Source: Botryllus schlosseri (lineage: Eukaryota). Taken from it: DNA of 64,000 nt. A program made the position numbers and the translations under genes. Where the stretch lies: the NCBI GenBank assembly GCA_051294905.1, contig CM119371.1, positions 15,068,001-15,132,000 on the forward strand. Direction: 5' to 3'. The notes under the pieces are model-generated. The model was not told the origin of the DNA. It did no database searches and saw only the letters and a list, made by a program, of their open reading frames with translations. Shown here one piece after another: positions 6,849 to 64,000 of the stretch; position 1 is the stretch's first letter, and every line of letters begins with the position of its first letter.

Positions 6849-8432
6849 TCATTTCGAAAATGACATGCAACAAACACTCGCATCTTTCGGAGAGGGTGGT
6901 TGCTCATCTTCAGATACCAAGAACTTATCCAATTCTACAGTTGCTATCTTTGTTCGTAATTGTTTATCATATATATACAACTTGTCCGTGATATGAATTT
7001 TGCATCCTGCATTGTATTTTTCAATGCGTAGACCAGGAACGAATTTCCATTGCTTTGTTATATCATCGTGGAATACAACTTCCTTTGAATGGTTACTGAT
7101 AGCATACACAGTCCCATTATACCTAAATGCAGATCCCTCCGCAACTGAAATTGGAATCTTTGAGATCTGGATACTCTGCATGGTTCTCAAATTGATCTGA
7201 AAAGCACGTGTGTTAACACAGCCTGGTACAGCATCAATGACATAAATGCATTCTTCCATACTCGTAATAGCAAATTTATTACTAATGCATGGTGCATTTC
7301 TTTTGATTTCAATTGATGACGACGTGCCAACGCCTAATTCATATAGGACTACTTGTCGTCGTGTAACCATCGCAATGTATTTCCCACATATGATGCATCT
7401 GTTGTATTCATCCTCCAAATCGTTCTCGTACAACTTTTTCCATTTCAACTCACTGTAACTAAAGACTGCATTGCCAGTTGTGACATAAATTATTCCTTTA
7501 TGCTCAACTACATCAAGGCACTTGGTTGATATGCCAGGAGGAAGTCTCGTAAATACCGACCATTTATCTTCAATTTGGCTGTACCTGTACACCGTCCTGG
7601 ATTTAGTGTCACATGATATGATGCCGGTCATCTGTTGACCACAAGCCAGGGGCACTTTGGAACATTTTTCCAATGCATAATCATGACTCACTATTTTCTG
7701 CAAGCATTTCTTTGAATCAGTCACCAATGCCTCACAAATGATATTTTCGCTTATAAATTGTCGAGTAAGAAATGCTAGATCAATCGACTGGAAGCAATCG
7801 TCAAAGGCATCTTTTCTTCTAAGCATGTCATGTTTGACCCAGGTCATCACTGCATTCCATTTTAACGTTTCATATTTCTTGCCCCAGTTTTCCACAAGAG
7901 ACAGCAAGTAAAGCAATATATCTTTTGATAAAGACTTCAGCTCTGGTGACTCAATAAATGCATTGAGATTTTCCTGGAAAAAGATTTGAATTGACGTTAT
8001 CAAAAGTTTCTTTTGATAAAGCAGAGCCACCGATAGCATCTCCGCTACATTTTCCATGGTTACATTCTCGGAAAGAAATTCAACGTAGAGATCCGTCAAA
8101 TCATGGAGGCAAAATATATCCGATGTTTTTATGAAATCAGTTATGCGATCCAAAGTAAAATCAACTTTCCCGGTATAAATGAAGTTGATGCATTGTTTCA
8201 CAACATCACCAGATGTATCAGGGAATGAGACAATCCCAGTCTTTGATTCTTTCGTATCATTCGAAAACATGGCTCGGAAATATTCCGACGCGGCAATCAA
8301 TACAAATTTATGAACTTTGATTTCGTCTTGCCCAGCCACAAAAGTGATGTCACAAAACTCTTCTTCTTCTCTCAACGCATTCATGGAATCGAGCATGGAT
8401 CGTGGATGCAAGGAACATTCCTTTGGAGACAT
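6849..8432 (-). CDS. BTB-BACK-Kelch-like protein, subfamily A (A1), 527 aa, intronless CDS
   Basis: BTB motifs FCDITF...HKFVLIAASEYFRAMF...FIYTG; BACK domain (F..L.KD.L..LL...V..WVKHD...R); C-terminal degenerate Kelch-like blades (IYVTTG, IYVI, VYAI, W-ending strands). Confidence 0.93.
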   Translation of the reverse strand: MSPKECSLHPRSMLDSMNALREEEEFCDITFVAGQDEIKVHKFVLIAASEYFRAMFSNDTKESKTGIVSFPDTSGDVVKQCINFIYTGKVDFTLDRITDFIKTSDIFCLHDLTDLYVEFLSENVTMENVAEMLSVALLYQKKLLITSIQIFFQENLNAFIESPELKSLSKDILLYLLSLVENWGKKYETLKWNAVMTWVKHDMLRRKDAFDDCFQSIDLAFLTRQFISENIICEALVTDSKKCLQKIVSHDYALEKCSKVPLACGQQMTGIISCDTKSRTVYRYSQIEDKWSVFTRLPPGISTKCLDVVEHKGIIYVTTGNAVFSYSELKWKKLYENDLEDEYNRCIICGKYIAMVTRRQVVLYELGVGTSSSIEIKRNAPCISNKFAITSMEECIYVIDAVPGCVNTRAFQINLRTMQSIQISKIPISVAEGSAFRYNGTVYAISNHSKEVVFHDDITKQWKFVPGLRIEKYNAGCKIHITDKLYIYDKQLRTKIATVELDKFLVSEDEQPPSPKDASVCCMSFSK

Positions 8433-9166
8433 ATTTCATAGAAGATCAGTTAGACACATGTAATTACATATGCTGCAAAATGTAACAAAAATACAATATT
8501 GTAATCAGTACAATTTTAAAATCGCTGCTTGTTTTTAAAAAAAGAATGCACCAAAAATGTTCACATTTGCCGACATTTAGGGGTCAGATTGTCGATTCTA
8601 TAAATAACCAACAACTAATGTTTATGGGCAATTATGAGATTGCCGTCGCAATTTTATCGCCATATAGGCTACAAGCGACTAAGTAATTGGCGATATTAAA
8701 CGCTTACGAGTCACTCTAATAGTAATATATATATTTGTCATTTACCGTAATTTTCCATGTATAATGCGCAAAATTTTACCAATTTTTTTGCCCAAAATAG
8801 GGGGTGCGTATTATACATGGGTACAGCAAGCCTTGAAAAAAAATCCCTCGATCAAAACTTCAAATCACTCCTTTCTTCATGTTTGTTTAAATCGCGCATC
8901 ACCTCTAGCCATTGGGCCCCCATAATTCGTATTATAGGTGATTCCCAACCGCGGCCCCCAAAAAAATATTGAGAAATCGATCTATGAAAAAAAAATATTT
9001 ATAAAATACTCTTGCTTGGCTTGGAGTCTGGAGTTTTCAATTAGCATTGCAGGCAAGTTGTGAGTAGACTGCTAAGATTACGTCACTGCTGTTTCAATGC
9101 AATGTGCCGTAACTTTCCAGTTGAACGGGCAGTACCTATAGATATAGGTATAGTTAGAGGTATTGA

Positions 9167-10541
9167 CAGGACCGTAACTGCCACACCCCAAGCCCCCCAA
9201 TTAGGGGCAGCGAGCTCGAAGGGGGCCCAAAATTATTTAGTGAATTAGCATAAATTATAGAGTATTTTATGAAATTTTATGCAACTTTTTCAAAGATTTT
9301 TCGCGCCGCGCGCGATTTCAAGTTTCCAAGTACCTTAATTATTGCGTACTCTTCGATCAAGATAAAATACGCAAGATTTATAGAAGTGGGCATATCGGCG
9401 TTAGCCATTACCGCGCCACGCCGCACGAAGACTTATAAAGTTTTAGGCCATGTAACATGCGATTCTAAGAAGTGTGCCAGAACGATCGGAAGCTAGAAAA
9501 CCTTGGCCGAAAAGGACTGCCCTTACGCTGACCGCAAACTCCGATCGAGGTCGACTTCCGAATTCCGATACGTAAGTGTCGGAGGCTCCTCCTAGGCTCC
9601 TCCTCGCCACCTCATCCGCGTCAGCGGTGTCTTACAAAAGCCTAGAGGTGGGCCGTGCTATAAGTCGGCAGTTACGGAAAATAAGAAGAATATCGGCCTG
9701 GTGTAAATGACCATAGTAGTCGACAAACACCATGAATACCCCAAATACAAAAAAAAAGTACGTTTGGGCGATTCTATATTTTTTGATACAGCAAACTGGA
9801 GGTCACGAAATAACAAATAACATCATGTAACGAAGTCTGACCAACGGGTCCGCCCGTCCGAATATGTTTAATTATTATTTACGGGCCATACAGTTTCCAA
9901 GACACCTCACTCAGCTCTACCGGTAAATCTGATTACGTGAGCAGAGAGGACAAGTAATTGATAGCAATATATATGCAATTCCCGATCTCATTGACCTATT
10001 TTATTTTGAATTATCGAAAATTTTCGCGCACAGCGCTGGCTCACTAAACGGGGATCCTGATTTCGTGGCAGAAGCGAACAACGGCACGGGGGGGTCGGTT
10101 TATCACCCTATGGGAGCTCAAGACCCAAGTGTTCTGGGGGGGGGGGGGGCTGACAAAGTGCTGTTTCGTTCCTGCCACCGGGTATACGCCCGAAGATGTT
10201 TAATTATTATTGATTGGTTCTACCTTTTCAAACACAACTCACTCGACTCAACCGGTCAATCTGATTACGTGAGCAGAGAGAGGATAAAAATTGATACCAA
10301 TATATATGCAATTCCCGATTATATTGACCGATTCAATCATGAATTATGGAAATTTTTCGCGCTTTGCGCGATTTGTCGTGAGTAGCTGCCTAAAACGGAC
10401 ACCCGATTTTGATGATAACTGGCGGTAAACAGCCATCTAGCCTGAGAAGGTCTGGGGGCTTCGAAGTTCGGTCTATCACCCTATGGCGGGCCCAAGAGAA
10501 ACGTTTTTTGGGGGGGCTGACGAAGTGCTGTAACGGCCCTG
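9167..10541. mobile_element. Nested non-autonomous hAT element (CAGGGCCG-type ends)
   Basis: CAGGACCGTAAC...GTAACGGCCCTG; perfect 8-bp TSD GGTATTGA (9159-9166, 10542-10549); internal ~340-bp diverged duplication; related fragment at ~50030-50780. Confidence 0.85.
9543..9758 (+). mobile_element. 5'-truncated SINE copy
   Basis: Aligns with the body of the tRNA-headed SINE at 38706-38972 (CGAGGTCGACT, CTAGGCTCCTCC, GGCCTGGTGTAAATGACCAT) and ends in an A-run. Confidence 0.65.
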
Positions 10542-12067: not shown

Positions 12068-12666
12068 CCGTAAACCGGGGTAACTTTGGACTTCAGAGTA
12101 ACTTTGGACACTGAGCAGTAAAGGATTTAAATGGTTATTGATGGAAAAGAGTTGCCGCTGGATGTCCAATTCTTTTTCATGAGACAAAGTACCAATAAAA
12201 GGTGAATTCATTTCACTGCCAGATAAACTTGACCCAGCGTTGATAAATTATTGGCGGGGGTCAATTCCATCAAAATTGATGGCCATCAAAATTATTACAA
12301 CCAAACATAGATAGCATGTGATTCATAGATTCAAAACTTGGCAGCAGATACCTCTAAGTAGTCTTAATCCATGGCAAAAATCTCATTGGGCTAATCCTTA
12401 TATCGATATAAGAAAATGTGATGTCCAAAGTTATCCCCTCAAATTTGATTAGAACGGGGTAACTTTGGACAGTGGAAAAAGTGATATTTAGAGCTCTGGA
12501 AAGTGGCTCCTCATCTGTGTCAAAGTGTTTTGTCAACTATATTCGTTATGACCGGCTGGATGGCTTTTCAAAATGGAATGAGAAGGTTAATAATTAAGAA
12601 TTTGCAAAAATATGAAAAAACGGGTAGGCAATGAGCCGAGAGATTGTAATAGGGTGTAGGTTACTT
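12068..12666. mobile_element. TA-flanked DNA transposon fragment abutting the truncated KLHL-A2 pseudogene
   Basis: TA|CCGTAAACCGGGGTAACTTTGGAC with repeated GTAACTTTGGAC subterminal motif. Right terminus not found. Confidence 0.5.
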
Positions 12667-13171
12667 TCATAATGACTGCGGTTCTTGTGACTCGACAAAT
12701 GCCTTGAGATTTTCCCGAAAAAAGATTTGAATCGAGGTTTTCAAAAGTTTCTTTTTATGAACTCGAGCCACCGACAGCATCTCTTCTACAGTGTCCATGG
12801 TTACATTCTCACAAATAAATCCAACGTGGAGATCCGTCAAATTATGGAGGCAAAAGATATCCGATGCTTTTATGAAATCAGTGACGCAGTCCAAAGAAAA
12901 TTCAACTTGACCGGAATAAATGCAGTTGATGCATTGTTTCACATTCTCACCAGGAGTATCTGGAAATGAAACAATCCCAGTCTTTGACTTTTCTGTCACT
13001 CGAAAACATGGCTTGGAAATATTCCGATGCGGCTATCAAGACAAATTTATGAACCTTCACTTCATCTTGACCTGTCACAATGGTGATGTCACAAAAGTTT
13101 TCTTCGTCTTTCAAAGCGTTCATGGAATCGAGCATGGATCGTGGATGCAAGGAACATTGCTTAGGAGCCAT
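12667..13171 (-). pseudogene. KLHL subfamily A pseudogene (A2): frameshifted and 3'-truncated
   Basis: Two overlapping ORFs (MAPKQCSLHPR...; ...KSKTGIVSFPDT...) match the A1/A3 BTB across a 2-nt deletion near 12995. Homology ends early in BACK at ~12668; the Kelch region is lost. Confidence 0.9.
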
Positions 13172-16163: not shown

Positions 16164-17747
16164 TCATTTCGAAAATGACAGGCAACAAACACTAATATCC
16201 ACATCTTTCGGAGCAGGCGCTTGCTTATCCTTTTCCGATACCACAAACTTTTCCAGTTCTACAGCACATATCTCTGTTCCCAATAGCTTTCCATATACAT
16301 ACAACTTGTCTGCGATATGAACTTTGGATCCTGTGTAGTAATTTCCAATGCTAAGACCTGGAATAAATTCCCATTGCTTTCGTATATCATTGTAGAACAC
16401 AACTTTCGTAAAATTGTTACTGATAGCATACACAATCCCATTATATCCGAAAGCAGATCCCTCCGTAACCGAAATTGGCATCGGTGAAATCGGGATACAT
16501 TGCATGGTTCTCAGGTTGATCTCAAAAGCAAGCTTACTATTAAAACATTCAATGACATAAATGCATTCTTCAAGACTCGTAATAGCAAATTTATTACTAG
16601 CCCATATTCCGTTTCTTTCGATTTTAATTGATGTCGACTTGCCACCGTCTACTTCATACAGGACTGCTTGTGTTTCAGTAACCATCGCTATGTATTTTCC
16701 ACATTTGATACATTTGTTATATTCTTCCTTCGAATCACTCTCGTACAATTTTTTCCATTCTAATCCATCGTAACTGAAGAGGGATTTGCCGGTTGTGACA
16801 TAAATCATTCCTTTATATTCAACAACATCAAGCCAATCACTTTTGATTATCGGAGGAAGTTTAGTAACTACCGACCATTCATCTTCAATTAGGCTGTAAC
16901 TGTACACCATCCTAGATTTCTTATCACATGATATGATACCAATCAACTGCTCACTGCAAGCCGGCAGTACTTTTGGATTTTTTTCCAATACATAATCACG
17001 ACACACTATTTTGTGCAAGCATTTCTTCGAATCAGTCACCAACGTCTCACAAACAACATTTTCCGTTATAAATTGTTGAGGAAGAAATGCTAGATCAATC
17101 GACTGGAAGCAATCATCAAACGCATCTTTTCTTCCAACCATGTCATGTTTGACCCAGGTCACTACTGCTTTCCATTTTAACATTTCATATTTCTTACCCC
17201 AGTTTTGCACAAGAGACAGTAAGTAAAGGAATTTATCTTTTGGTAATGACTGCAGCTCTTGTGAATCGACAAATGCCTCGAGATTTTCCCGAAAAAAGAT
17301 TTGAATGGTGGTTTTCAAAAGGTCCTTCTGATAAATTAGAGCCACCGATAGCATCTCCCCTACATTTTCCATGGTTATATTCTCTGACAGAAACTCAACG
17401 TAGAGACTCGTCAAATCATGGAGGCAAAACATATCCGATGCTTTTATGAAATCAGTGATGTGATCCAAAGTAAAATCAACTTTCCCGGTATAAATAAAGT
17501 TGATGCATTGTTTGACAACATCCCCAGGAGTATCGGGGAATGAAACAATCGCAGTCTTTGATTCTTTTGTATCATTCGAAAACATGGCTCGGAAATATTT
17601 CGACGCGGCAATCAATACAAATTTGTGAACCTTGATTTCGTCTTGACCGACCACTATGGTGATGTCACAAAACTCTTCTTCGTCTTTCAATGCATTCATG
17701 GAAGTGAGCATGAACCGTGGATGCAAGGAGCATTCCTTTGGAGCCAT
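16164..17747 (-). CDS. BTB-BACK-Kelch-like protein, subfamily A (A3), 527 aa, intronless CDS
   Basis: Full-length paralog of 6849-8432 with the same BTB/BACK motifs and degenerate propeller. Confidence 0.93.
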   Translation of the reverse strand: MAPKECSLHPRFMLTSMNALKDEEEFCDITIVVGQDEIKVHKFVLIAASKYFRAMFSNDTKESKTAIVSFPDTPGDVVKQCINFIYTGKVDFTLDHITDFIKASDMFCLHDLTSLYVEFLSENITMENVGEMLSVALIYQKDLLKTTIQIFFRENLEAFVDSQELQSLPKDKFLYLLSLVQNWGKKYEMLKWKAVVTWVKHDMVGRKDAFDDCFQSIDLAFLPQQFITENVVCETLVTDSKKCLHKIVCRDYVLEKNPKVLPACSEQLIGIISCDKKSRMVYSYSLIEDEWSVVTKLPPIIKSDWLDVVEYKGMIYVTTGKSLFSYDGLEWKKLYESDSKEEYNKCIKCGKYIAMVTETQAVLYEVDGGKSTSIKIERNGIWASNKFAITSLEECIYVIECFNSKLAFEINLRTMQCIPISPMPISVTEGSAFGYNGIVYAISNNFTKVVFYNDIRKQWEFIPGLSIGNYYTGSKVHIADKLYVYGKLLGTEICAVELEKFVVSEKDKQAPAPKDVDISVCCLSFSK

Positions 17748-21676: not shown

Positions 21677-21721
21677 AGCTACGCTGTAAATTCTTAGGTA
21701 TCCCGCGATACAAGTATACAT

Positions 21722-27193: not shown

Positions 27194-28807
27194 CTACACC
27201 TTGACCATTGCAGATCCACAGAGTTCAAAAGATCGACGTGCCTCTTTTTTGATGCTGTACCATTTTTTGTTCAATAAATTGTACTTCTCGATACAATCAG
27301 AGTCGCCAAGTCTATCCACTACAATTATCCAATTGCCAATGAGATAAGTCGTATTGAAACTATGACAAAGATTCGTAGATGACAATGAAGTCCACTGTGC
27401 TGAAGTAACATCGTAACATTCCACGTCATTGATCATCTCATTTCCACTCCACCCACCGGTCACATATATCATTTGATCGACTGCAACAGTACCACAGCCA
27501 AATACAGGATATCTCATGGGTTCAAGATCTACCCACTCTGAAGAGGATGGATTGAATCTGCAGAATGAAGAAACTTGAACACGATCCCGAAACCCTCCGA
27601 TACAATAAACAGAATCATCCAATGACACAAGACTTGCATGACAAATTGGTGTAGGTTTGTTTGGCAGTTGGAACCATCGATTCACCGAAGGGTCATATCT
27701 TTCCACATCAGTAGATTCAATGCGATATTCTCCTATTTCACTTCCACCAATGACAAATATTGACCCGCACAATGACACTGAGCAAGGATCCGTCCCGTGT
27801 TCACAAATCATGTCTTCCATATTTTGCCATTTTGAATTAGTTCGTTGAACATTGAGTCGATAAACGGATTTACCTTTGCATAAAATGTAAACATGTAAGT
27901 CGAGGAAAATTGCTGTAAAACAATTAAAACGCCTAAACCCAGCATTGTGGAACTTGGTTATTTTCTCCGAAACTGGATCAAAGGACCGAATACAATCTGT
28001 TTCCTCATCAAAAAGAATTATTAATTCGGTTGTTTTTACCAGTTCAACCGATGCTTCCTGAAGATGTCCGCTGATCAACTTGTTCAACTTATAATCATTC
28101 CTGATAGTGGGGTTATTTTCTAGAAGATGTTGCAAAAATGTTGGGGAGATTTCATCGAAGTCAACGAATTCAAGACATTCATACAAATATTCCTTCTTCT
28201 TTTCACATGTCTCGGTCCATTTGAGAGATAATTCTAGTTTTTCTTCCTCCCATAACTTTGCTTTCGTCGACTTCAAAACACTGATGAGGTCATTTTTTTC
28301 AACGCTGACAAATCCGGCTTGGTTTGCGATTTCCATAATATTTTCTTGTAAAAATATTCTGCATTCTGAAGAAACAACATCCAGTCCATAAATATCACCA
28401 ACATTTCTTGTTGAGAAGAAATTATCGATGGTAACTGTATTAACCAAAATATCGGATATTGTATGCTTTATACCTTCCAACTGCATCATGATTGCGACGT
28501 GAAGAAGTTCAATCATTTTTCCATCCGGAAATTCAATTTCACTGGAATATATAGAATCGATGCAGATTTTGACACATTCGGAATCAACATCTTTAAAAAC
28601 GACTCTACTCTCTCGACTCTCTTTAGTGTCATGTTTCAACATGGCTCTGAAATAATCAGAGCCAGCCGACAATATATTTTTGTGGGCGTAGTAGACGTCG
28701 TTTCCAACTTCAATAGCAAAATCACAATGGTCCTTATCTTCCTTCATTCGATTTAATTCCACCATCATCTTCACAGCATGTTGCTCCACATTCTGACAAA
28801 GGACCAT
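27194..28807 (-). CDS. BTB-BACK-Kelch protein, subfamily B (B1), 537 aa from first ATG, intronless CDS
   Basis: HCDF...AHKNILSAGSDYFRAML BTB; BACK; canonical Kelch repeats (IFVIGG...VERYDP...W; YCIGG; YVTGG...VECYD...W). The ORF track starts at a TTG; the ATG is at 28807. Confidence 0.94.
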   Translation of the reverse strand: MVLCQNVEQHAVKMMVELNRMKEDKDHCDFAIEVGNDVYYAHKNILSAGSDYFRAMLKHDTKESRESRVVFKDVDSECVKICIDSIYSSEIEFPDGKMIELLHVAIMMQLEGIKHTISDILVNTVTIDNFFSTRNVGDIYGLDVVSSECRIFLQENIMEIANQAGFVSVEKNDLISVLKSTKAKLWEEEKLELSLKWTETCEKKKEYLYECLEFVDFDEISPTFLQHLLENNPTIRNDYKLNKLISGHLQEASVELVKTTELIILFDEETDCIRSFDPVSEKITKFHNAGFRRFNCFTAIFLDLHVYILCKGKSVYRLNVQRTNSKWQNMEDMICEHGTDPCSVSLCGSIFVIGGSEIGEYRIESTDVERYDPSVNRWFQLPNKPTPICHASLVSLDDSVYCIGGFRDRVQVSSFCRFNPSSSEWVDLEPMRYPVFGCGTVAVDQMIYVTGGWSGNEMINDVECYDVTSAQWTSLSSTNLCHSFNTTYLIGNWIIVVDRLGDSDCIEKYNLLNKKWYSIKKEARRSFELCGSAMVKV

Positions 28808-38594: not shown

Positions 38595-38620
38595 TATTCA
38601 AACTGTCACTCAGTATAATG

Positions 38621-39798: not shown

Positions 39799-41412
39799 CT
39801 ATAGCTTCACCATTACAGATCCGCAAACTTCGAACAAATGATTTGGTTCTTTTTCCATGTTACACCATTTTTTGTTACATAAATCGTACTTCTCAATGTC
39901 ATGCGAGTCACCAAACTGATCCACTACAAAAATCCAATTACCGATGCGATAAGCACTGTTGTTGCCATGAGTTAAATTCATAGATGACAACGAAGTCCAT
40001 TGAGCTGAAGTAACATTGTAACATTCTACATTGTTGAGAATATCATCTTCACTCATCCCACTCGTCACAAATATCTTTTGGTCAACTGCAACAACACCAC
40101 AGCCATCAGCAGGATATCTCATTGGCTCGAGATCAACCCACTCTGATGAGAATGGAGTGAGTCTGCAGAATGAAGAAACTTCGACACCATCTCGAAAACC
40201 TCCGATACAATAGATGGAACCATCCAATGACACGAGACTAGCATTGGAAATTGCTGACGGTTTGTTTGGCAGTAAAAACCATTGATTTACAGATGGGTCA
40301 AATCTTTCGACATCAGCTTTTTCTGTAAAACCACTTCCTCCAATAACGATTATGGATCCGGTTGAACAAACTGAGCTTGGAAATAAACCATGGTCGCAAA
40401 TCATATCATCCATCTTTTCCCATTTCGAATTTTTTCTCTGAAAATTGAGTTGATGAACAGATTTAGCTTCAGAAAAGACATAAATATATGAGTCCAAAGA
40501 AATCGCTGTGAAATCCATTGAGAAATCAAACTTTGCATCATGAAACTTTTCTATTTCCTCGGTTATTGGATTGAAGGATTGGAGGCATTTTGTCTCATCA
40601 TCAAAAAGAATTATCAATTTGTCAGCCTCATTATCTTCTTTTGCCTTAATGGAAGCTTTCAGAATATGACCAGTGAATGCCTTGTACAGCACGGAGTCAT
40701 TACTTATGTGGGGGTGAGTTTCTAAAATCTGTTGCAAATATGCCGGGGATATTAGATCTAATTTGATTACTTCGAGAAATTCATGCAACAATTCTCTTTT
40801 ACTTTGAGATGTGTCGATCCACTTGAGCGATAATGCGAGTTTTTCTTCTTCCCATAATTTCAATTTTCCCGACTTCAGAAGACCGAGAAGGTCATCTTTG
40901 TCAATGCTTTCAAATCCAGCTTGGTCTGAGATTTCCATGATGTTATCTTTTAAAAATATTCTGCATCTCAAAGAAACATCAGCCAGTCCATAAATATCAC
41001 CCACATTTCTGGTAGAGAAGTAATTTTTAATGGTGATTGATTCCTCCAAAATATCGGATACGGCTTGCTTTACGTCATCCAGCTGCATCATCATTGCGAC
41101 GTGAAGAAGTTCAATGATATTTCCATCAGGAATCTCAAATTTACCCGAATATATGAAATCGATGCAATTTTTCACACACTGAGAATCCACATCTTTCAAA
41201 ACAACTTTTCTGTCGCGACTCTCTTTTGTGTCATATTTCAACATGGCTCTAAAATAAGCGGAACCAGCCGACAAGACATTTTTGTGTGTACGATAGACAT
41301 CATCTCCGACTTGGATTATGAAATCACAATGATCATCATCTTGCTTCATTCGATGTAATTCCTCGAGCATCCTCACAGCATGCCTCGCCACATCTTGACA
41401 AACAACCTGCAT
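39799..41412 (-). CDS. BTB-BACK-Kelch protein, subfamily B (B2), 537 aa from the paralog-aligned ATG
   Basis: Same domain motifs as B1. Start placed at MQVVCQ by alignment with B1/B3; the in-frame ATG at 41505 lies upstream of a putative splice acceptor. Confidence 0.93.
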   Translation of the reverse strand: MQVVCQDVARHAVRMLEELHRMKQDDDHCDFIIQVGDDVYRTHKNVLSAGSAYFRAMLKYDTKESRDRKVVLKDVDSQCVKNCIDFIYSGKFEIPDGNIIELLHVAMMMQLDDVKQAVSDILEESITIKNYFSTRNVGDIYGLADVSLRCRIFLKDNIMEISDQAGFESIDKDDLLGLLKSGKLKLWEEEKLALSLKWIDTSQSKRELLHEFLEVIKLDLISPAYLQQILETHPHISNDSVLYKAFTGHILKASIKAKEDNEADKLIILFDDETKCLQSFNPITEEIEKFHDAKFDFSMDFTAISLDSYIYVFSEAKSVHQLNFQRKNSKWEKMDDMICDHGLFPSSVCSTGSIIVIGGSGFTEKADVERFDPSVNQWFLLPNKPSAISNASLVSLDGSIYCIGGFRDGVEVSSFCRLTPFSSEWVDLEPMRYPADGCGVVAVDQKIFVTSGMSEDDILNNVECYNVTSAQWTSLSSMNLTHGNNSAYRIGNWIFVVDQFGDSHDIEKYDLCNKKWCNMEKEPNHLFEVCGSVMVKL

Positions 41413-51382: not shown

Positions 51383-54065
51383 TGTGTACATTAGGGTTGT
51401 TCAGAATTGACCGACTTTCAAAAAGTCTAGGTTTTCAGTCCGATTCCCATGCCTTATACCTTAAAAACAAATTCTGGCAACTTTTTTTTGTAATTCATCC
51501 CCTGCATCCGCGAGCACATTGCCGTTTTCTCATGCACCTAAAAATTTCTTCGGAATTAGGGGATTCCCCCGTTGTCAGTGACTCAATAGTAATGGCGTGT
51601 GTTCTCATTGACATGACGCGTATGTTCCAGCGCTGATGAAGCGCTGAGCACGGCTGTGAAACGGGGATCATTGATTAGTCAGGTGCCTTGCTGCTTTGTT
51701 GTTGATGGACTGTGTTTACGATTGAGGTGCAGGACTTATCAGGCGGCGTTTTGACTCATGCTATTAGCGAGTTTAGCGCGTGAATAGTGAACGTAGTATT
51801 ATAGCAGTATACAACTATTTGATATAATAGACCTGATACTCTTTTCCTTTCTACTGGGATAGAAACAAAGCTTGCAATGCCTATTCCAGTGACTGGGGAA
51901 AACCGCCAGTCGGTTGCTCTAAATTTTTTGTTATATCCCAAGATATCAATATACTGGTATGAGTTTTTCCAATTTAGGAATAACTATCTCCGATAATCTA
52001 CAACTGGATCTCATCTGGCTACTCCTGCACAAGTTATGCAGTATGTGTTCGACCTAAAACTCTAAAAGAACTGAAATGTTTTCCACTATTCTTTGTTGCT
52101 GGACTGAGTTTATGTATTTCTGTTTTTCTAGGATTAGCTGTAGTGCGAAATGTCTGAAAAAAAAAGAAAATCGTCATCTAGTGCAGCAGTACCGAATAAA
52201 ACTAGAAGAACACGATCGCAGACACAGCATTTCTTAGTTGGGCCATCTGAGGAAGCCATTACGGGATCGAAGTTGCCCACTCTGAGGCAAGTTATGCAAT
52301 ATGTGCTACACCTGAGAGAGCATTCATTTTTAAAAAATGTACCAGTCAAGTCGCACATCCAGATCGCAGTAGATGAAGTGATCGGTTTTTGGTTACTTGC
52401 TGGCATGAAGACTATCACAAAAGTCAATGCCACTAAAAGATTGGAAACAGTATGGACACAATGGCTGTCACTAAAAAAAACTGCAGGCCGGCAATATGTA
52501 TCAAAAAAACAAAGCGACTTTGAAGCCAAACTGAGTAAGCTATGGGATATAGGAGCCCCCGACGCAATAGCGACAATTGAAGCAAGTAGACTTCTTTCTG
52601 ACGATAAAAAACGTGAAGACATAGCATTTTATCAGGATCAAAGGGGTCCGAGATTAGCAACGATCGGTGGCAAAGATAAAGTGTTGAAAGCGAAAATCAT
52701 GCAACAAAAGAGACGGACCATGAGTGCAAGAGAGTCTGCACCAGCATCAAGTAGCGAAGGTGAATTTACAGAAAGCTCATCTATATCATCACAGGTAGCT
52801 GATACTTCTCACAGCACTGATTTTGAACTTGCACAGTCGACATCTGGTCATTCCGCTAAATTTGTGACTCTAAAAGCTCCTGTAAACCTATTCAGCGACG
52901 AAGACCTATGCCAGGTTTTTGATCGCTTGAAAGTCAGTGATAATGCCGCTACCATGATAACTGCAGCACTGATTAAAGCTTGCGATGGCAACCCTAATGA
53001 CTTCCATCTTTCAAGATCTGGGACCTATCGACGACGCATTGCAAATCGTTTGAAAATTTCCGAATCTATCTTTGAAAAAATATCCACCAATCCACCAGAG
53101 CACATTGCATTGCACTGGGATGGAAAGCTCACTAAGAGTCGTCTAGGATATCAATTTGAGGCCTTGGCAGTGCTCGCATCGTCTGCGTATTCCGGCGCAT
53201 TTAAGAAAGGGAAACTTCTTGGCATTCAAACTCTGGAGAGTGCTACAGGAAAAGCACAAGCTGATGCATCATTTGAACTGCTGGAACTTTGGAATTTAAC
53301 AAAATCTGTTAGAGCTCTTGTGTTTGACACAACATCCTCAAACACTGGTAAAAACAAAGGTGCGGTTCCGTTACTTGAACAATTGATTAACAGGAAAGTT
53401 TTCTACAATGCCTGTCGCCATCATATTTATGAACTGGTTATTCGAGAGGTTTGGAAGTGTTTGTTTGGATCGACAACCACAGGCCCTGAAAACACGGATT
53501 TTAATACCTTCAAGAAGAAGTGGAAACATATTGATAAATCAAGAAGCTATAAAACGCTGAAGTTTATTGAAGGCAGCTGGTTGGGGATGAAAGCTGATGA
53601 AGCAAAGCAAGAAATAATTCCACTGATGAAACCCAATGATGGAAAGCAGAAAGAAGTCTTGATAAGAGATGACTACAGAGAATGTGCAACAGGCACCTTG
53701 GCGATTTTGGATGACAAATATGTTGATCATCGTTTTCGCAAGCCTGGTGCTACTCATAGCGCTAGATGGATGGGTCAAGTCCTGTACTGTCAAAAAATGT
53801 TCATGTGGAGTGAGCAAATGGACTATTCTGAAGAGTTCATTGAAAAGTTGGAACGAATCAATACATTCATTGCTTTGTTTTATGTTCCAGCTTGGTTGAA
53901 AACTGGTATTGCATGTGACGCACCTTGGAATGATCTCAAATTCCTTCATGACATGAAAAACTTTTCATTATGCGATCTCGCTGTTGCTGATGTGGCATAC
54001 AAGAAATTGCGAAAACATCATTGGTATCTAACTGAGGAAATGGTGGTGTTTACCATGTTCTCGGC

Positions 54066-56257
54066 GGTCCGTGGACATATTAGCATGCGACACAATAGCA
54101 AGCGACACTTGAGCATGCGACACTTGAGCATAGCGACTTTTGGTCATGGCGACTCGTGGGCATGTAGACATATCAGCACAGGGACATATTAACATGAGGA
54201 CATATTAGCATGGGGACACATAAGTATAGGGACACACGAGCATGGATACACGTGAGCATAGGGACACGTCAACATGGTGACAATTTAATAAGTGCCACTT
54301 GAGCATGGTGACACATGAGCATGCGATACATGAGCCTTGACGACACATGAGCATGGGTACACAAGAGCATGGGCACACATGCGCATATGGACACATGGGC
54401 ATGGGGACATAAGAGCAAATGTGCACATGAGCATGGGGTCATGTACGCATGCGACACTTGAGCATGCGACACGTCTACATGCAGACACTTGAGCATGCGA
54501 CACGTGGATATGCAGACACTTGAGCATGCGACACTTGGGCATGCGACATTTGGGCATGCGACACTTGAGCATGCGACACTTGAGCATGTGACACTTGAGC
54601 ATGCGACACTTGAGCATGAGACACTTGAGCATGCGACATTTGAGCATGTGACATTTGAGCATGTGGGCATGCTACACTTGAGCATGCGACACTTGAGCAT
54701 GCGACACTTGGGCATGCGACACTCGAGCATGCGACTTTTGAGCATGCGACACTTAAGCATGTGACCGTATAGATTTGTCTGAAAAGCTCCAAATATCACG
54801 GTAAAGCGATAAAGGTTGTCATTGCTCCACATATATTGGAATCGTTTACACGTATCAGACGAACTAAAAGAATATATCCTTTTGTGAGACGAAAGCGATT
54901 GCAAATTCGCATTTCGACACGGGACTTGTTATATTATTTTAGTTTTACGTGCCGTGGGTGGGTAGGGGGGACATTAGGGTTGGAGGTGGGTTAGGGTTAT
55001 GATTAGGGTTAGGTTAGGGTTAAGATTAGGGTTTGCTTGGGGTTAGGATTAGGGTTAGGTTAGGTTAGGGTTATGATTAGGGTCCATATTGGAGTTAAGG
55101 TTTCCCAAGATTAGGGTTGGGGGAATGGATATTAGGGTTGGTTACGGTTAGAGTCAAGGTATCCCAAGATTAGGGTTCGGGGGTGATGAGTATTAGGGTT
55201 GGGAGGGGGATATTAGGGTTGGTTAAGGTTAGGGTTAGGGTTAAGGTATCCCAACATTAGGGTTGGGGGTGATGAGTATTGAGTATTAGGGTTGGGAGGG
55301 GGGATATTAGGGCTGGTTAGGGTTAGGGTTAAGGTGTTAAGGTATCCCAAGATTAGGGTTAGAGTTAGGGTTAGGATTAGGCTTTGCGTTAGGGTTACGG
55401 TATCCCAAGATTAGGGTTGAGGTGATGGGTATCAAAGTTGGGAGGGGGGATATTAGGGTTGGAGGAGGGGAGATATATCATTTTCGGACTGGTATAAATC
55501 CATGATTTTGACGCTAGTTAACTACACACTAAGAAATGACAAATGCTTAAGTGTCGCATGCTCAAGTGTCGCATGCCCAAGTGTCGCATGCTCAAGTGTC
55601 GCATGCCCAAGTGTCGCATGCTCAAGTGTCGCATGCTCAAGTGTCTCATGCTCTAGTGTCGCATGCTCTAGTGTCGCATGCTCAAGTGTCGCATGCTCAA
55701 GTGTCTCATGCTCAAGTGTCGCATGCTCAAGTGTCTCATGCTCAAGTGTCGCATGCTCAAGTGTCGCATGCTCAAGTGTCGCATGCTCAAGTGTCGCATG
55801 CTCAAGTGTCGCATGCTCAAGTGTCGCATGCTCAAGTGTCGCATGCTCAAGTGTCGCATGCTCAAGTGTCGCATGCGCAAGTGTCCCCATGCTCATTTGT
55901 CACCATGCTAACATGTCACCATGCTCATATATCACCATGCACAAGTGTCAACATGCTGAAGTGTCCCAATGGTTATGTGCCCCCATGCTCACTTGGTACC
56001 ATGCCCATGTGTAACCATGTTGATTAGTCCCCGTGCTAATGTGTAACCATGCTCAAGTGTCGCATGCTAATATGTTTCCATGCCCATGTGTCCCCTTGCT
56101 CATGTTTCACCATGCTGATATGTCCCCATGCGCATGTGTCCCCATGCTCATGTGTCCCTATGCTCATGTGTTACCATGCTAATGTGTCCTCATGCTATAG
56201 CGTCGCATGCTAAACTGTCGTTTTTCATTGTGTCGCATGCTCATATGTCGGGCAACC
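54066..56257. mobile_element. Foldback-type (MuDR-like) non-autonomous element with 15-bp tandem-repeat inverted arms
   Basis: 9-bp TSD GTTCTCGGC (54057-54065, 56258-56266); ends GGT...ACC with shared GACATAT(T/G)AGCATGCGACACAAT; left arm (GACACTTGAGCATGC)n ~54066-54765; right arm is its reverse complement ~55544-56257. Confidence 0.88.
54956..55471 (+). repeat. Telomere-like (TTAGGG/TTAGG)-rich interstitial tract
   Basis: Many TTAGGG units and G-runs interleaved with GGTATCCCAAGA and GGGGGATA spacers; strong G/T strand bias. Confidence 0.9.
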
Positions 56258-57941
56258 GTTCTCGGCTAATCCAAAGATTCCTGACAAACTGAAGGAAGCG
56301 ATGGCTGCTAAATTGCTGAAAATGCCAATCCCTGAACAATTTCGCAGAGGTATGCCTCTCAGTCTGATCTCTGACTCTGTCTCTGAGTCAACGAGTATGG
56401 TCGATTTGATTGGGCCAGAATCGTGGTTTCTATTTGATGCTATACATGTGGAACATGATTGGTTGAGTCTTCCAGTTTCGGAATGGCATACTGATCCGGA
56501 TTTCGTGACTGCTCAAGAATTTGTGAATACTGTTGAAGTAGTTAATGATGCAGCAGAGCGTATGGTAAAATTGAATACCGACTATGCTGCGTTCATAACG
56601 GATGACGAAAAACAGCGAGCGAGCCTCCTACAAGCTGTGGAAGATCACCGGAACAGATATGCAGATTTCTCGAAAGCAACCATATCATCCACCTGATTTA
56701 TGTAATATTTTGCCAAGTTGATCTCTTTCTTTGCCTTAGTTTTTCGTTTCCTGTGATGTGTTTGCCTTAGTTTTTCGTTTCCTGTGATGTGGCTGTGAGT
56801 GGATGTTACATTTACAGTTGTATTCTTGCACATGGGGATCCAGGAAATTGATGAACAGTGCCGGGTAGGTTTGAGGGGTGTAGGATATGTGATCCAACAA
56901 AATGACTATCAGTTTTAGGTAGTTTTGAGCAGTTCTAAGGCAGTGTGGGACATGGAAATGATATCCTGAACTAGGAATGCCTTATATAGTGGGGTTTTGT
57001 AGCACTCCAAACCGCAACAGCTGCATAAATCCATGTTATATGTCACTTTAACTAGGCTAGGTAAAATCGTGACACTCAGATTTTAGGGGAATCCCCTATT
57101 TTCAGCTGCTATTCTTCCAGCTCAATGTGCACACGGATGCAGGGGACGAGTTATAAAAAAAAGTAGCCAGAATATGTTTTTAAGGTATAAGGCATGGGAA
57201 TCGGACTGAAAACCTGGACTTTTCGAAAGACGGCCAATTCTGAACAACCCTAGTGTACATGTAACAAATTCATTGTAAAAGCCCTGTTCATGGACACATC
57301 GTCAGGAGTTCAACAGAAAACATGATCACAGAGTCCAAATTTATTGAGAATTCATTAAAATTGCTGGAAGAAGGTGCTAGGTAAAGACTGTGCTAAGAAA
57401 CGTCATAAAAAAATATTTCAAACAGCAATGTTTCCATCACATTCTGAAAGCAATTTCTAGATCATTCTTAACAATCCACTACACCCCATACAAAAGTGAT
57501 ATGGTAGATGCTGGAAGTCGTCAAATGAAGTACTTAATATTTTCGAAGTACTCAAGTAGGTTCTCTCAAATTGCACTACTCATTTAAGCAATAAGACTAC
57601 TTCTACTTTACTATTTGTGGGGTAAAACTACTTCACTTGTACATCATGAAATATTTCAGCTAGTTTTGTGGTGAGTTTGCAACGCTTCTGTGAGTGTGAT
57701 TATCTTAGGCCTAGAAGTAGCCCGTGTTATCGTAGCTAAATCTTCATCAATTTTTAGTGTCATCAGTCATTTTAAGCAGTCGAAGATACATTTAAAAATG
57801 ACAACCCATCTCGACTTAATGTACCTTTTCAAGTTTATTTGAATAATCGTAGTGCTAAGATGTCGAAAATGGACAGAGTGTAAATTTGTGGTGTGATCTC
57901 TAATGGACCAGTAACGCGGACAACTTTTACCAGCTCGGTGA

Positions 57942-59567
57942 CTACACCTTAACCATTACGGTTCCGCATACACAAAATGACGGACCTGCATTCAAACGAA
58001 TGTCATACCATTCCTTCTTCGATAAATCATACTTCTCAATATTATCTGAAAGGCCACACTCATCTACTGCATAAATCCAGTTGCCAATTAGATATGTAGT
58101 AGTCCAACCACGACAACGAATCATCGGTGGCAACGAAGTCCACTGTGCTGAAAGGACATCGTAACATTCAACAGAATTAATAGCGTCTCCTTCACTCCAA
58201 CCACCGCTCACAAATATTCTTTGATCAACTGCAACAACACCACAGTCATCAAGCGGATATCTCATTGGCTCAAGGTCAACCCACACTGATGACGATGGAC
58301 TGAATCTGCAGAATGAAGAAACAAAATTGCCATCCTCCCCTTTACCTCCGATACAGTAGATGTAATCGTTCAATGATACGAGACCTGCATCAGAAATCAC
58401 TGTAGGTTTGTTCTCCAGTTGGAACCATTGATTTACAGATGCGTCGAATCTTTCCACGTCCCTGGTTGTCGTAAGATAACTGCCACCGATGACGAATATG
58501 TATCCGGAAGAACAAACAGAGTGAGGAAAGATACCATGGTCACAAATCATACTGTCGGTCTTTTCCCATTTTGAATTTTTGCAATGAAAGTTGAGTCGAA
58601 AAACAGATTTAGTCTCGCATAGAACGTAAATATACGAGTCGAAGGTAATTGCAGCGAAATTCAACGAGGACTGAAACTTCGCTTCATGGAACATTTCTAT
58701 TTGCTCGGTTACTGGATTGAAGGATCGGAGGCATTCTCCTTCCCGATCAAAAAGAATAATCAATTCACCAGCAGCATTTTCTTCTTTTGCCTTGTTAGAA
58801 GTATTCAAAATATATCCAGAAATTGACTTGTACAATTCATAATCTTTGCTTATAAGGGGTTGAGTTTGTAAAACATGCTGCAAATACGCCGGAGAGATTT
58901 TATCAAAGTGGATCACTTTGAGACCTTCGTGCAAATATTCCTCTTTACTGTGGCATTTGTCGATCCACTTGAGTAATAACATAAGTTTTTCTTCTTCCCA
59001 TAATTTGGATTTTCCAGACTTCAAAATACAGAGAAGTTCAGCTTTTTCCACGCTCCCGAATCCAGCTTGGTTTGAGATTTCCATGATATTTTCTTGTAAA
59101 AATTCTCTGCAATCTGAAGACACACCTACCAGTCCATAAATATCACCAATATTTCTTGTAGAGAAGTAATTCTCTGTGGTAATTGATTCAGTCAAAATAT
59201 CGGATATCGCATCCTTTACATCTTCTAACTGCATCATAATTGCGACGTGAAGAAGTTCGAACATTTTGCCATCAGGAATCTCAAATTTGCTTGAATATAT
59301 GAAATTGATGCAACTTTTCACACACTCGGAATCTACATCTTCTAATACAGCTCTTCCTTGGCGACTCTCTTTTGTATCATGCTTCAGCATAGCTCTGAAA
59401 TAATCCGAACCTGCTGACAATATATTTCTGTGAGTGTGATAGATATCATTCCCGACTTGAACTATGAAATCACAATGATCTTGATCTTGCTTCATTCGAT
59501 ATAATTCCTCCATCATCTTCACTGCACGTTTCTCTGCACGTTTAATAGCAACCTGCACCATGATCAT
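57942..59567 (-). CDS. BTB-BACK-Kelch protein, subfamily B (B3), 541 aa from first ATG
   Basis: BTB HCDF...THRNILSAGSDYFRAML, BACK and canonical Kelch repeats; uninterrupted ORF; ATG at 59567 or 59561. Confidence 0.94.
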   Translation of the reverse strand: MIMVQVAIKRAEKRAVKMMEELYRMKQDQDHCDFIVQVGNDIYHTHRNILSAGSDYFRAMLKHDTKESRQGRAVLEDVDSECVKSCINFIYSSKFEIPDGKMFELLHVAIMMQLEDVKDAISDILTESITTENYFSTRNIGDIYGLVGVSSDCREFLQENIMEISNQAGFGSVEKAELLCILKSGKSKLWEEEKLMLLLKWIDKCHSKEEYLHEGLKVIHFDKISPAYLQHVLQTQPLISKDYELYKSISGYILNTSNKAKEENAAGELIILFDREGECLRSFNPVTEQIEMFHEAKFQSSLNFAAITFDSYIYVLCETKSVFRLNFHCKNSKWEKTDSMICDHGIFPHSVCSSGYIFVIGGSYLTTTRDVERFDASVNQWFQLENKPTVISDAGLVSLNDYIYCIGGKGEDGNFVSSFCRFSPSSSVWVDLEPMRYPLDDCGVVAVDQRIFVSGGWSEGDAINSVECYDVLSAQWTSLPPMIRCRGWTTTYLIGNWIYAVDECGLSDNIEKYDLSKKEWYDIRLNAGPSFCVCGTVMVKV

Positions 59568-60338: not shown

Positions 60339-60489
60339 CTTGCTACCCAACCATTATTTAACAACAAATATATATGTAAGATCACTTTGATGTTGCAGCA
60401 CAGCAGAAACTTACTCGAATCTCGAGAATGCATGCTTAAACATGATTCAGAGAGGTTTTCAGTCAACACTAGAATATCACATATTCTCG

Positions 60490-62015
60490 AGAGCATTCAT
60501 AGATGGTAATGAAGTCCACTGAGCTGATGTGACATCGTAACATTGTTGATGAGCTCCTTTCCACTATGACCGCCCGTCACAAATATCTTTCGATCAACTG
60601 CAACGACACCACTATCACACACAGGATATCTCATCGGTTCAGGGTCAACCCACTCTGATGAGGATGGAGTGAATCTGCAGAATGAAGTAACTTCGACAAC
60701 ATCTCGTCATTCTCGCCAACCTCCAAAACAATACTCAGAATCATTTAACGGTACAAAACTTGCGTCAAAATTGTTATAGGTGAATATACCAGTTGACGCC
60801 ATCGATTTACCGAGGGGTCAAATCTTTCCACATCATATTTTTCTCTAATAAAAATTCCTCCAATAACGAATATTGATCCAGACAGAGATACTGAGCGAGG
60901 ATATAGTCCATGGTCAAATCTTTCCACATCATATTTTTCTCTAATAAAACTTCCTCCAATAACGAATATTGATCCAGACAGAGATACTGAGCGAGGATAT
61001 AGTCCATGGTCCCAAATCATATCTTCCATACGTTCGTTCCCCTTTGGAATTTTTTCTTCAAAAATTGAGTCGATGAACAGATTTATTCGCACATAAAATG
61101 TAAATATACATATCGAGAGAGATCGTGAAATAAGTCAAATGCTTAAATGTGGCATTGTGGAACTTGATTATTTTCTCCGTAATTCGATTATAGGATCAAA
61201 TACAATCGGTGTACTCATCAAAGAGGATTATCAATTATTTTTGTTGACAAATGCAACTGACACTTCTTGAATATGTTCACGAATGTGCTTGTATGACTTG
61301 GAGTCGTTCCTGATTATGGGATGAGTTTCTAGATGTTGCAAAATGGAAAATTAACTCCGTCAAACTCGATCAATTCGAGACATCAATGCAAATATTCCTT
61401 CTTTTTTCACATGTCTCAATCCGTTTTAACGATAACTGTAGTTTTTTGTCTTCGCATAAGTGTGATTTCTTGGACTTCAAAACACCGATACAGTTTTTAC
61501 AACTGTTTCAAATCCAGCCTTGTTTGCGATTTCCATGATATTATTTTTGTAAAAATAATCTGCATCGTGAAGTGACATCAACCAGTCCATAAATATCATC
61601 AACATGTCTTGTGGAGAAGTAATTCTCAACAGTAATTGATTCCGCCAAAATATCGGATATTGCATCCTTCACATCTTCCAACTGCATCATAATTGCGACG
61701 TGAAGAAGTTCAATGGTTTTTCCATCTGGAATCTCAAATTCATTTGAATAAATGACATTGATGCAATTTTTCACACATTCCCAATCTACATCTTTTAAAA
61801 GGACTCTTCCTTCACGACTCTCTTTTGTGTCATTCTTCAGCATGACTGTAAAATATACGGAACCAGCCGACAATACATTTTTTGTGGGTATGATAGACAT
61901 CATCTCTGACTTGAATTATGAAGTCACCGTGATCGTTATCTTGCTTCACTTGATGCAATTCCGTCATCATACACTTTCCACGCTTTTCTGTATCCATAGA
62001 TAGCATTCGCACCAT
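60490..62015 (-). pseudogene. KLHL subfamily B pseudogene (B4)
   Basis: BTB, BACK and Kelch homology split over several frames (ORFs 61830-62015, 61541-61903, 61477-61665, 60745-61092); 96-bp internal duplication; last blade deleted before the shared 3' flank. Confidence 0.92.
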
Positions 62016-63028
62016 GATCGCTAATCTCTAATTAGGTATATGCTGTACAAAAGAGAATAGCAGATGTAATCTGTACTGACAGTAAACATGAAGGCATCAC
62101 ATACCACTAGTCAGAACAGAGAAAATCAATATGAACTGAATATACTAGCATTCCGATGCACATAGCATATAACGAAGGTGTGAACAAGAAAATAGTCAAA
62201 ATTGACATCAGGGTACTAATCAAAATATCCAGATTGGAAACAAACATCAACTTCAGGCCGCCTGGTGTAAGCAAATGGATACTCTTTCACCAGGTAGCCA
62301 TATGGAAATCTAAAAGTCCTAGCCAATATCTTCGGCTAATTCCAGAGTTTTTACCTGACTCAACGTCAGATCAGCTAGTGTTACCAGATGGGCAATCCTC
62401 TATCCTCTATGAAACAAAGACAAAGAAAGCCTATAGGATTTGAAAGTTGACTTATGGCAACTCCGTTTGCTCTTGTTACCGTGTTAAAGGGCAGGCATGT
62501 TCTTGAGAATCTAAATCTGTCCGACACCTTAGTATCGCAACGATAATCCATTTCACTCATGAGGAACTTATCCAACAATCTGAAAATTCTGTTTCAGATA
62601 ATACATTGGAGAATCGCAATCATACATCGGAACGAATACAAATGAAAAAATAATTTGGACTTGCAAGTCTAGAAAGAGCAACGCAGTGAGACAACACCAT
62701 TAAATTAATGCAAGTCAACGAGTGTAAATGAACGTTCAACATTATCGCAACTCGGATCGGATGCAAAAAAAACAGCTGACAAAGATGAATGACAAATGAC
62801 AGAGTTTATAAAAACAGTCAATCAATAAACTGTAACAAAAAATGAACATCAAAGAGTCATAAAATGTAAATTGCTTCAAGACTTCAGGAGCAAAAGAGAA
62901 TCGGCAGTGGATGCAGACATCTCATCTGCTTTTTGCTCAGATTATTCCAGAAATATTTGAAAGAGCATACGAATTTAGGCTGACATGATTCTAAAAACGT
63001 TGGCTAATCGGCGCAAAGAACATCTAGC

Positions 63029-63180
63029 CAAAGGTGGTCAGTAATGAAGTACTGATAATTTTTTGGAGTACCCGAGTAGGTTTCGCCTATTTACACAACC
63101 TGCTCAGCTGGTTATAGACTTCGTCTACTTGAACAGTTTGCTGGGAAAACTTCTCACTTTTTAAATTTTGGCCACCTTTG
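63029..63180. mobile_element. Short AGTAC-rich hAT-type MITE
   Basis: CAAAGGTGGTCA...TGGCCACCTTTG; same family as 6475-6715. Confidence 0.6.
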
Positions 63181-63543
63181 GCTAGATGCAGCTACAGTTA
63201 TAGGTTGGATATGGGTTAGATTCGGTTGATTCAAATGGAATGCGGCAATATATCACAGGAAAAAATCATTTCCGTCATTCAAACAATTGAAACGATACTC
63301 TTAATGTATCACTACAACAATCTACAATTTTCTCACTAAAATGAGCTGTAATTTGATGGATCTGTCACATAGTCAATGTCGTTTCTGATATGAATACTAA
63401 CCACTTTGCAGTTACAGCATAACCAACTTATCCAAATTTCATGAATGCAGAATGTTCACACATTATTCTCAGAGGTTTTGAGCCCACATTAAAATATCTC
63501 ACGTCCTAAGATTCGAGAGGCCTTCAATTGAAGACACAGTTAT

Positions 63544-64000
63544 CTATATCTTCACCATTGCAGATCCGTGCCAGTACTTTACAACTGCTTCCTTTTTCAC
63601 GCTATGCCAATTTTTGTTCAATAAATCATACTTTTCAATGTTTTTATAGCCATCCACTACAAAAATACAGCTGCCAATGTGATACGCAGAATTGAATCCA
63701 TGACATATATTCATAGATGACACCGACGTCCATTGAGCTGATGATACATCGTAACATTCTACGTTCTTGTTGAGATCTTGTTCACTATAACCGCCGGTCA
63801 CGAAGATCTTTTGATTAACTGCAACAGCACCACATCCATACACAGGATATCTAAATGGTTCGAGGTCAACCCACTCTGAAGCGGACGGAGTGAATCTGCA
63901 GAATGAAGAAACTTGGGCAACATATTTCAATCCTCCAACACTGTAAATGGAATCATCCAGTGACACAAGTGTTGCTTTGCAAGTTGCTGTAGGCTTTTTT
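63544..64000 (-). CDS. C-terminal part of a subfamily B BTB-BACK-Kelch gene (B5), cut by the window edge
   Basis: Frame is open to the edge: KKPTATCKATLVSLDDSIYSVGG...EWVDLEP...VTGG...SAMVKI*; 3' flank is most similar to that of B1. Confidence 0.85.
   Translation of the reverse strand, partial: KKPTATCKATLVSLDDSIYSVGGLKYVAQVSSFCRFTPSASEWVDLEPFRYPVYGCGAVAVNQKIFVTGGYSEQDLNKNVECYDVSSAQWTSVSSMNICHGFNSAYHIGSCIFVVDGYKNIEKYDLLNKNWHSVKKEAVVKYWHGSAMVKI

Follow-up and report, generated by a model that had tools for sequence, protein, structure and literature searches.

The stretch of DNA analysed here (the window, C1:15,068,001-15,132,000 of the 496-Mb Botryllus schlosseri assembly, 64,000 nucleotides) carries eight loci with BTB-BACK-propeller genes, members of a family of over 100 BTB-Kelch genes with frequent pseudogenization. 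In subfamily B of this family a ratio of non-synonymous to synonymous change (dN/dS, ω) above 1 is confined to DA and BC loop positions of the propeller and the scaffold is under purifying selection. About 20 residues that change faster than neutral on the predicted target-binding face are likely to mark a protein-recognition repertoire for fast-changing targets. We think it rather probable that the proteins of the family are CUL3 substrate receptors that keep a single docking surface but offer many pockets, and that conflict with fast-changing targets has driven these pockets apart, the step to non-self targets being the last in the argument. The loci in the window are tandem paralogs of a birth-and-death BTB-BACK-Kelch family of more than 100 genes, which would act as interchangeable CUL3 substrate receptors that tag fast-evolving targets for ubiquitination; every copy would dock on the same CUL3-RBX1 core and show a different pocket, and selection would repeatedly favour new pocket specificities because the targets evolve antagonistically.

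Predicted fold and selection on the binding face

The AlphaFold2 (AF2) model of the subfamily B protein B1, built on a 72-sequence alignment (predicted local distance difference test score, pLDDT, 89.9), consists of a BTB domain followed by helices 130-139 and 143-155 (3-box), the BACK helices and six four-stranded blades (24 strands), with the propeller closed by a C-terminal strand and with a short BC loop in blade 1. Pfam places BTB and BACK above cut-off in all five full-length window proteins and Kelch_1 above cut-off in subfamily B. The best Foldseek matches of the model are the KBTBD2-CUL3 and KLHL22-CUL3 complexes and the Kelch domains of KLHL12 and KEAP1, the propeller reaching template modelling (TM) scores of 0.80-0.85 to the last two. 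In solved KLHL proteins the DA and BC loops form the substrate pocket (available part of PMC3597819).

Codon site models were used to locate selection. The B1 genome query gave 81 scored matches among 550 candidates (8 with internal stops), from which 70 sequences were retrieved, giving 61 distinct long open reading frames (ORFs). Four of these were excluded: L030 and L093 lack a usual start, L112 is 99.8% identical to L108, and L118 has an aberrantly long C-terminus. The remaining set of 57 intact B genes and 537 codons is biased toward intact, B1-like copies. The models were run in our own code, whose M0 likelihood agrees with that of IQ-TREE on the 61-ORF set (-40808.4 versus -40808.5). Model M8 is preferred over M8a with twice the log-likelihood difference (2ΔlnL) at 336 (F3x4) or 308 (F61), and M2a over M1a at 463 and 458 with the two codon-frequency sets, with ω of 2.3-3.0 on 5-7% of sites. 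Twenty sites exceed 0.95 in all four fits (B1 residues 269, 292, 296, 311, 339, 340, 362, 390, 406, 411, 436, 437, 453, 456, 457, 458, 484, 500, 505 and 528). Nineteen of these lie in DA/BC loops, spread over all six blades, and site 528 begins the closing strand; counted by class, 19 fall among the 109 top-loop columns and none among the 38 bottom-loop columns (Fisher p=0.004). The original prediction, made from the letters of the window alone, had expected both sites with dN/dS>1 and a concentration of variation on the top face, and both were found.

The alignment was also divided into partitions set from the AF2 strands, each with a separate synonymous rate and with BACK judged by M8/M8a. 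BTB (ω 0.24), BACK (0.40) and the bottom loops (0.32) have no class with ω>1 (2ΔlnL 0-2.6), whereas 22% of top-loop sites are at ω 2.3 (2ΔlnL 174, or 133 on gap-free columns). There is thus positive selection on the substrate domain together with purifying selection on the cullin-binding domain. Among 13 close pairs the top-loop dN/dS is 0.89 versus 0.19-0.29 elsewhere at equal pS. Two disjoint paralog sets each reject M8a (94 and 313) with 12 sites common to their lists of 26 and 24, and sites chosen in one set have ω of 1.8-2.6 in the other when the synonymous rate is that of the whole gene. An alpha/beta grid that lets synonymous rates vary by site gives 21 sites with P>0.9, of which 19 fall in top loops.

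The consensus sites 390 and 458, and the sites 389 and 483 (M8 P>0.95 with both codon-frequency sets), align with KEAP1 R415, R483, N414 and S508, respectively, in a blade register that is ambiguous; these KEAP1 residues bind Nrf2 (available part of PMC10146909). Ten Styela clava sequences differ at the selected positions (19 scorable) by 0.65 versus 0.17-0.28 in the scaffold classes. Subfamily A, represented by the 7 intact genes of 11 close matches, gives a weaker signal (2ΔlnL 20-29) in the C-terminal domain only. Its member A2 was modelled with pLDDT 83.7 and top Foldseek matches to KBTBD2, KBTBD4 and KLHL22; the propeller has no Pfam Kelch match above cut-off, is Kelch-type in the model with TM scores of 0.55-0.68 to Kelch domains, and has a closing segment (511-527) with pLDDT <50. 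Subfamily A is predicted to fold as a degenerate Kelch-type propeller of uncertain closure.

Docking on CUL3

In KLHL3 the residues A77, M78 and E85 touch CUL3 (available part of PMC3616122). Their equivalents A55, M56 and E63, the last being the Glu of the φ-x-E motif, are present in all 61 B ORFs, and A55 and M56 are invariant in all 72 aligned sequences. The 23 modelled interface residues are the most constrained part of the BTB domain (ω 0.11 versus 0.28 for the rest). The B1 BTB-BACK dimer, modelled together with the N-terminal domain of a stand-in CUL3, scored 0.78 versus 0.01 for the best of three controls, with at least 73% of contacts agreeing between runs, partner pLDDT of at least 87 and a canonical H2/H5 interface. 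In calibration on microbial pairs, 51 of 78 solved complexes and 2 of 108 mismatched ones came up to the score mark that this model attains; for eukaryotic pairs the figures are 71 of 105 solved and 2 of 126 unrelated. The BTB domain is therefore predicted from the model to dock on helices H2 and H5 of CUL3.

On the partner side, a single CUL3 locus stands among the 39 cullin-family matches of the host, and the helix H2 that it encodes matches the solved CUL3 sequence. The genome cullin search detected no expanded cullin set, but five multi-exon cullin loci and an APC2-like ORF. The latter, an intron-free 797-aa cullin-homology ORF (L122:43-2436, C16 ~7.99 Mb), was considered as a retrocopied CUL3 partner and rejected as it looks like APC2, a name that we presume from its motif.

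Family size, birth and death

An exact search of the genome with a 30-nt motif from the BTB domain of B-type genes gave 105 matches (0 for the reversed control). The motif retrieves 54 of the 61 known B ORFs, from which about 120 copies of subfamily B, and at least 105, is a fair estimate. Of 100 motif places listed, C1:6.5-7.6 Mb holds 46, and the cluster of the window, C1:13.8-15.8 Mb, holds 38; the A2 genome query gave 84 matches. In the 264 kb around the window there are 20 family loci, 11 intact and nine broken or partial, with A and B intermingled with a third group, C. The pattern is one of lineage-specific clustered expansion with birth and death.

Group C consists of further single-coding-exon BTB-BACK genes with degenerate propellers and about 30% identity to A, found at C1:15.0-16.2 Mb and on C2, C3, C5 and C13 and partly interleaved with A and B. 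The B copies L088/L090, L099/L100 and L108/L112 are identical or near-identical pairs 120-490 kb apart, and may be very recent duplications, products of gene conversion or assembly duplicates.

Relatives

The taxonomic range was taken from two word-indexed protein searches (62 and 71 matches), in which no named relative is nearer than the kelch-like proteins of Styela clava (27-31% identity; automatic NCBI names), eight of 12 on one 20.3-Mb record, some of the entries perhaps being isoforms or duplicates as there are two annotations. Three unnamed assembly proteins reach 38-52% identity. Matches in other animals mostly have 20-24% full-length identity, and most of the conserved outside relatives are named KLHL10. 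No viral protein was among the 62 and 71 matches, which are no direct test of viral origin.

In a quick tree limited to BTB-BACK and to 22 of the 57 B rows, the 12 Styela clava rows form a clade of their own (support 94), sister to B plus the three assembly proteins, and subfamily A groups with group C. In this tree one-to-one orthologs are absent among the Styela clava relatives retrieved, in keeping with the lineage-specific repertoire that had been proposed. The Styela clava cluster resembles subfamily B in varying at the same pocket positions and in its position as sister clade, but is separate from it and in most members has the motif N-V-E versus T-K-E in subfamily B.

Neutral drift and loss of coupling as alternatives

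A number of points count against a selected, CUL3-coupled repertoire and are taken together here. In the codon tests M0 supplied fixed relative branch lengths; a small class with ω>1 is present in the strand columns too (2ΔlnL 24); whole top loops average ω 0.74-0.89, below 1; and with the synonymous rate freed, the cross-validation between paralog sets falls to ω 1.3-1.8 in weak tests (2ΔlnL 2.5-9.9). Null simulations with discordant segment trees likewise flag 26-43 sites at ω about 1.2, which makes site posteriors alone unreliable, and the site lists are therefore to be read with their ω value. As regards CUL3, the φ position is Thr in 60 of the 61 B ORFs and Ser in one, and is Thr in subfamily A too, so that the motif lacks the large hydrophobic φ which in solved BTB-CUL3 complexes, according to the available parts of the sources, buries most surface. 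The stand-in CUL3 of the model (P0108) is 75-97% identical to the host exons. Comparable complexes (KLHL11, KLHL22 and KBTBD2) have already been solved, the good score may be recall, and it therefore shows likeness, not binding. As regards expression, the depth over B1 and A2 is mostly <1 in two bulk RNA runs, and none of the 4868 mapped reads of the single-cell run X3 is 99% or more identical to the window genes, so these reads come from paralogs or divergent alleles. Some members of the family are transcribed, since X3 contains strand-specific reads in sense orientation across the B coding regions. Two of the four runs mapped, X12 and X14, hold no reads.

If the array were simply prone to duplication and its surface loops relaxed, the pattern could have arisen by neutral drift, with gene conversion, misalignment or biased mutation producing a spurious ω>1. 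The broken and partial loci around the window and the low top-loop average would agree with this, as would segment trees that have merely 14-33 of 54 splits in common with the whole-gene tree. However, the bottom loops are equally exposed and remain at ω 0.32, and the signal is kept in gap-free columns, in both paralog sets and with site-wise synonymous rates. It is lowered but kept when double and triple hits are allowed (best M8 ahead of best M8a by about 172), and with segment-specific trees it stays in the three propeller segments (78, 45 and 135) and not in the two N-terminal ones (2.1 and 0.6). In eight of eight null simulations 2ΔlnL reaches merely 5.6-28, more than ten-fold weaker than observed, with ω 1.09-1.25, and the same positions vary in Styela clava. 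Neutral drift is largely refuted and we regard it as very improbable.

Loss or weakening of CUL3 coupling, leaving proteins that bind and sequester their targets or serve as decoys, is in our judgement improbable. It would account for the Thr at φ in both subfamilies, and the complex model may mirror memory of solved homologs; the invariant A55, M56 and E63, the strong constraint on the interface and its canonical H2/H5 geometry in the model argue for retained coupling. Support for the proposed CUL3 docking comes from the conservation of the contact residues and from the complex model, not from the φ residue.

Candidate targets of the repertoire

For a CUL3-coupled repertoire, the adaptor expansions of nematodes suggest by analogy that proteins of intracellular parasites, viruses or selfish elements would be the likeliest targets; targets in the germline or in conflicts with self fit the sequence data equally well. 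To our knowledge tunicates are without adaptive immunity. In its most extended form, which we put forward tentatively as a possibility, the family would be an ascidian germline-encoded intracellular immune repertoire of well over 100 CUL3 receptors in several subfamilies, with different six-blade pockets, ubiquitinating viral, parasite or selfish-element proteins and rebuilt independently across ascidian lineages at the same pocket positions.

The same repertoire might instead have been diversified by internal conflict, whether over proteins of germline or sperm, over products of selfish elements or in competition between cell lineages, and not by pathogens, which we consider rather unlikely. 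KLHL10 is a CUL3 adaptor of spermatogenesis, and it is KLHL10 names that most of the conserved outside relatives retrieved carry. A 'Kelch-like protein 10' transcript is 224-fold up in fertile Botryllus colonies (available part of PMC4523013), its link to the present family being by name only, and a nematode F-box paralog causes hybrid incompatibility (available part of PMC12951971). The low bulk RNA signal would fit restricted expression. On the other hand the quick BTB-BACK tree leaves the family outside the KLHL10 clade, and its identity to KLHL10 proteins is no higher than the 20-24% given above.

Relation to known adaptor systems

KLHL-type adaptors are usually viewed as conserved housekeeping regulators, and those of vertebrates are stable, mostly single-copy orthologs. 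The present family shares with the vertebrate KLHL/KBTBD adaptors (KBTBD2, KLHL22, KLHL11, KLHL3 and KEAP1) the BTB-BACK-six-bladed Kelch architecture and, in B proteins, the conserved α3 A-M and Glu of the CUL3 interface; the subfamily B model further shares with KBTBD proteins the C-terminal strand that closes blade 1 and the short blade-1 BC loop. It differs in being 13-22% identical to them and the ortholog of no named member, in the Thr at φ, and in having more than 100 tandem single-coding-exon copies, frequent pseudogenes and positive selection on the pocket.

Expansions of F-box and MATH-BTB adaptors in nematodes were reportedly described by Thomas in 2006. Such nematode families combine clustered lineage-specific expansion with a conserved cullin-docking domain and a fast-evolving substrate domain, and the targets of adaptor expansions are mostly unknown, with a role in immunity speculated (available parts of PMC12951971 and PMC8120010). 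Clustered expansion, birth and death, a conserved docking domain and a fast substrate domain are common to the nematode F-box/MATH-BTB families, the plant F-box(-Kelch) families and the family described here, which differs from the nematode ones in its BTB-BACK-Kelch adaptor class, its chordate host and the absence of a detected expanded cullin set. As Pfam found no F-box or MATH domain in 11 window ORFs, the family may work like the nematode expansions but is not a member of them.

No description of this BTB-Kelch family was found in the literature on tunicates and other invertebrates within the scope searched, which left most subscription journals outside, and 'kelch' and 'BTB' have 0 occurrences in the available main text of a 38-tunicate comparison (PMC13746493). 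Arms-race-like expansions of cullin adaptors are known; what appears new, judged by this analogy, is the same pattern on a KLHL-type scaffold in a chordate. More than 100 copies with pockets driven apart by selection would mean that the KLHL scaffold can be converted into a recognition repertoire. With the family come an exact list of about 20 putative specificity residues, a natural library of degron-binding pockets and a testable route to understanding the recognition of intracellular non-self, or the policing of germline conflicts, in tunicates. Were the immune repertoire real, chordates would have in it their own version of the adaptor-based defence of nematodes, built on a KEAP1-like scaffold.

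Loci of the window

Eight co-oriented paralogous loci had been predicted and were found, all on the minus strand (Table 1). As genes the count is lower: A1, A2, B1, B2 and B3 have complete open frames in the window and B5 is intact in the genome with a frame of 533 aa, and two loci, A-psi and B4-psi, are pseudogenes, the latter with 7 stops within a single tblastn piece. Near-copies of B3 (95-96% amino acid identity) lie 21 and 51 kb away, outside the window. The loci belong to two distant subfamilies, B (B1-B3, B4-psi and B5) and A (A1, A2 and A-psi), which can be aligned with each other in BTB-BACK only (26-33% identity).

Table 1. Family loci of the window and features of B1 (positions counted from the first letter of the window)
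Feature	Position	Strand	Description
A1	6849..8432	-	Intact BTB-BACK gene with one coding exon, 527 aa; degenerate Kelch-type propeller predicted from the model of its paralog A2
A-psi	~12649..13171	-	Subfamily A pseudogene, truncated, with frameshift and stop; only the BTB part remains
A2	16164..17747	-	Intact subfamily A gene, 527 aa; 73% identity to A1
B1	27194..28807	-	Intact BTB-BACK-Kelch gene, 537 aa; residue numbers in the text are those of its protein
B1 six-bladed propeller	27200..28027	-	Residues 261-536; holds all 20 robust positively selected sites
B1 T61-K62-E63	28619..28627	-	Aligned with the CUL3-binding φ-x-E motif (KEAP1 L-R-E)
B2	39799..41412	-	Intact BTB-BACK-Kelch gene
B3	57942..59561	-	Intact BTB-BACK-Kelch gene
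B4-psi	60495..62024	-	Subfamily B pseudogene with stops, frameshifts and a 96-bp internal tandem duplication
B5	63544..64000	-	3' end of a B gene; start ~1.1 kb past the window (C1:15133136)

The scaffold and loop motifs quoted in the original prediction are all present in the translations, and all four sets of loop examples map to BC or DA loops of the AF2 model, but GGSFIREKYDVE derives from the pseudogene B4-psi. The subfamily B scaffold, which had been called nearly fixed, is conserved to a lesser degree: the four intact window B genes are 70% identical in BTB and strands and 63-64% in BACK and the bottom loops, with 48% in the top loops. The genes had also been called intronless, which is correct for the coding regions. 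A T-rich acceptor-like motif ending in ACAG or GCAG lies 27-71 nt before the ATG in 50 of the 57 B genes versus 14.25 expected from upstream control windows, a count made with a pattern picked after viewing the sequences and on genes that are not independent; the motif also precedes A1, A2, B1, B2 and B3 of the window. The motif suggests a 5' non-coding exon or spliced-leader trans-splicing upstream of family genes. Read joints from the RNA mapping were considered as introns and rejected because they are not GT-AG.

Between B2 and B3 (51385-57259) lies an element resembling a DNA transposon. It has terminal inverted repeats of 137 nt (91%), a transposase-like ORF of 682 aa (52144-54192) without Pfam match, whose CxxH-like motif we take to be DDE-type, a second piece (56214-56696), and internal inverted 15-bp minisatellite arrays and GGGTTA-like repeats. 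Direct repeats 99-100% alike and about 3.06 kb apart lie between B1 and B2 (~32884-38777) and suggest a recent tandem duplication of non-family DNA. Long inverted-repeat pairs (84-94%) at 5386-6021 and 21717-23201 are likely to be elements resembling miniature inverted-repeat transposable elements (MITEs).

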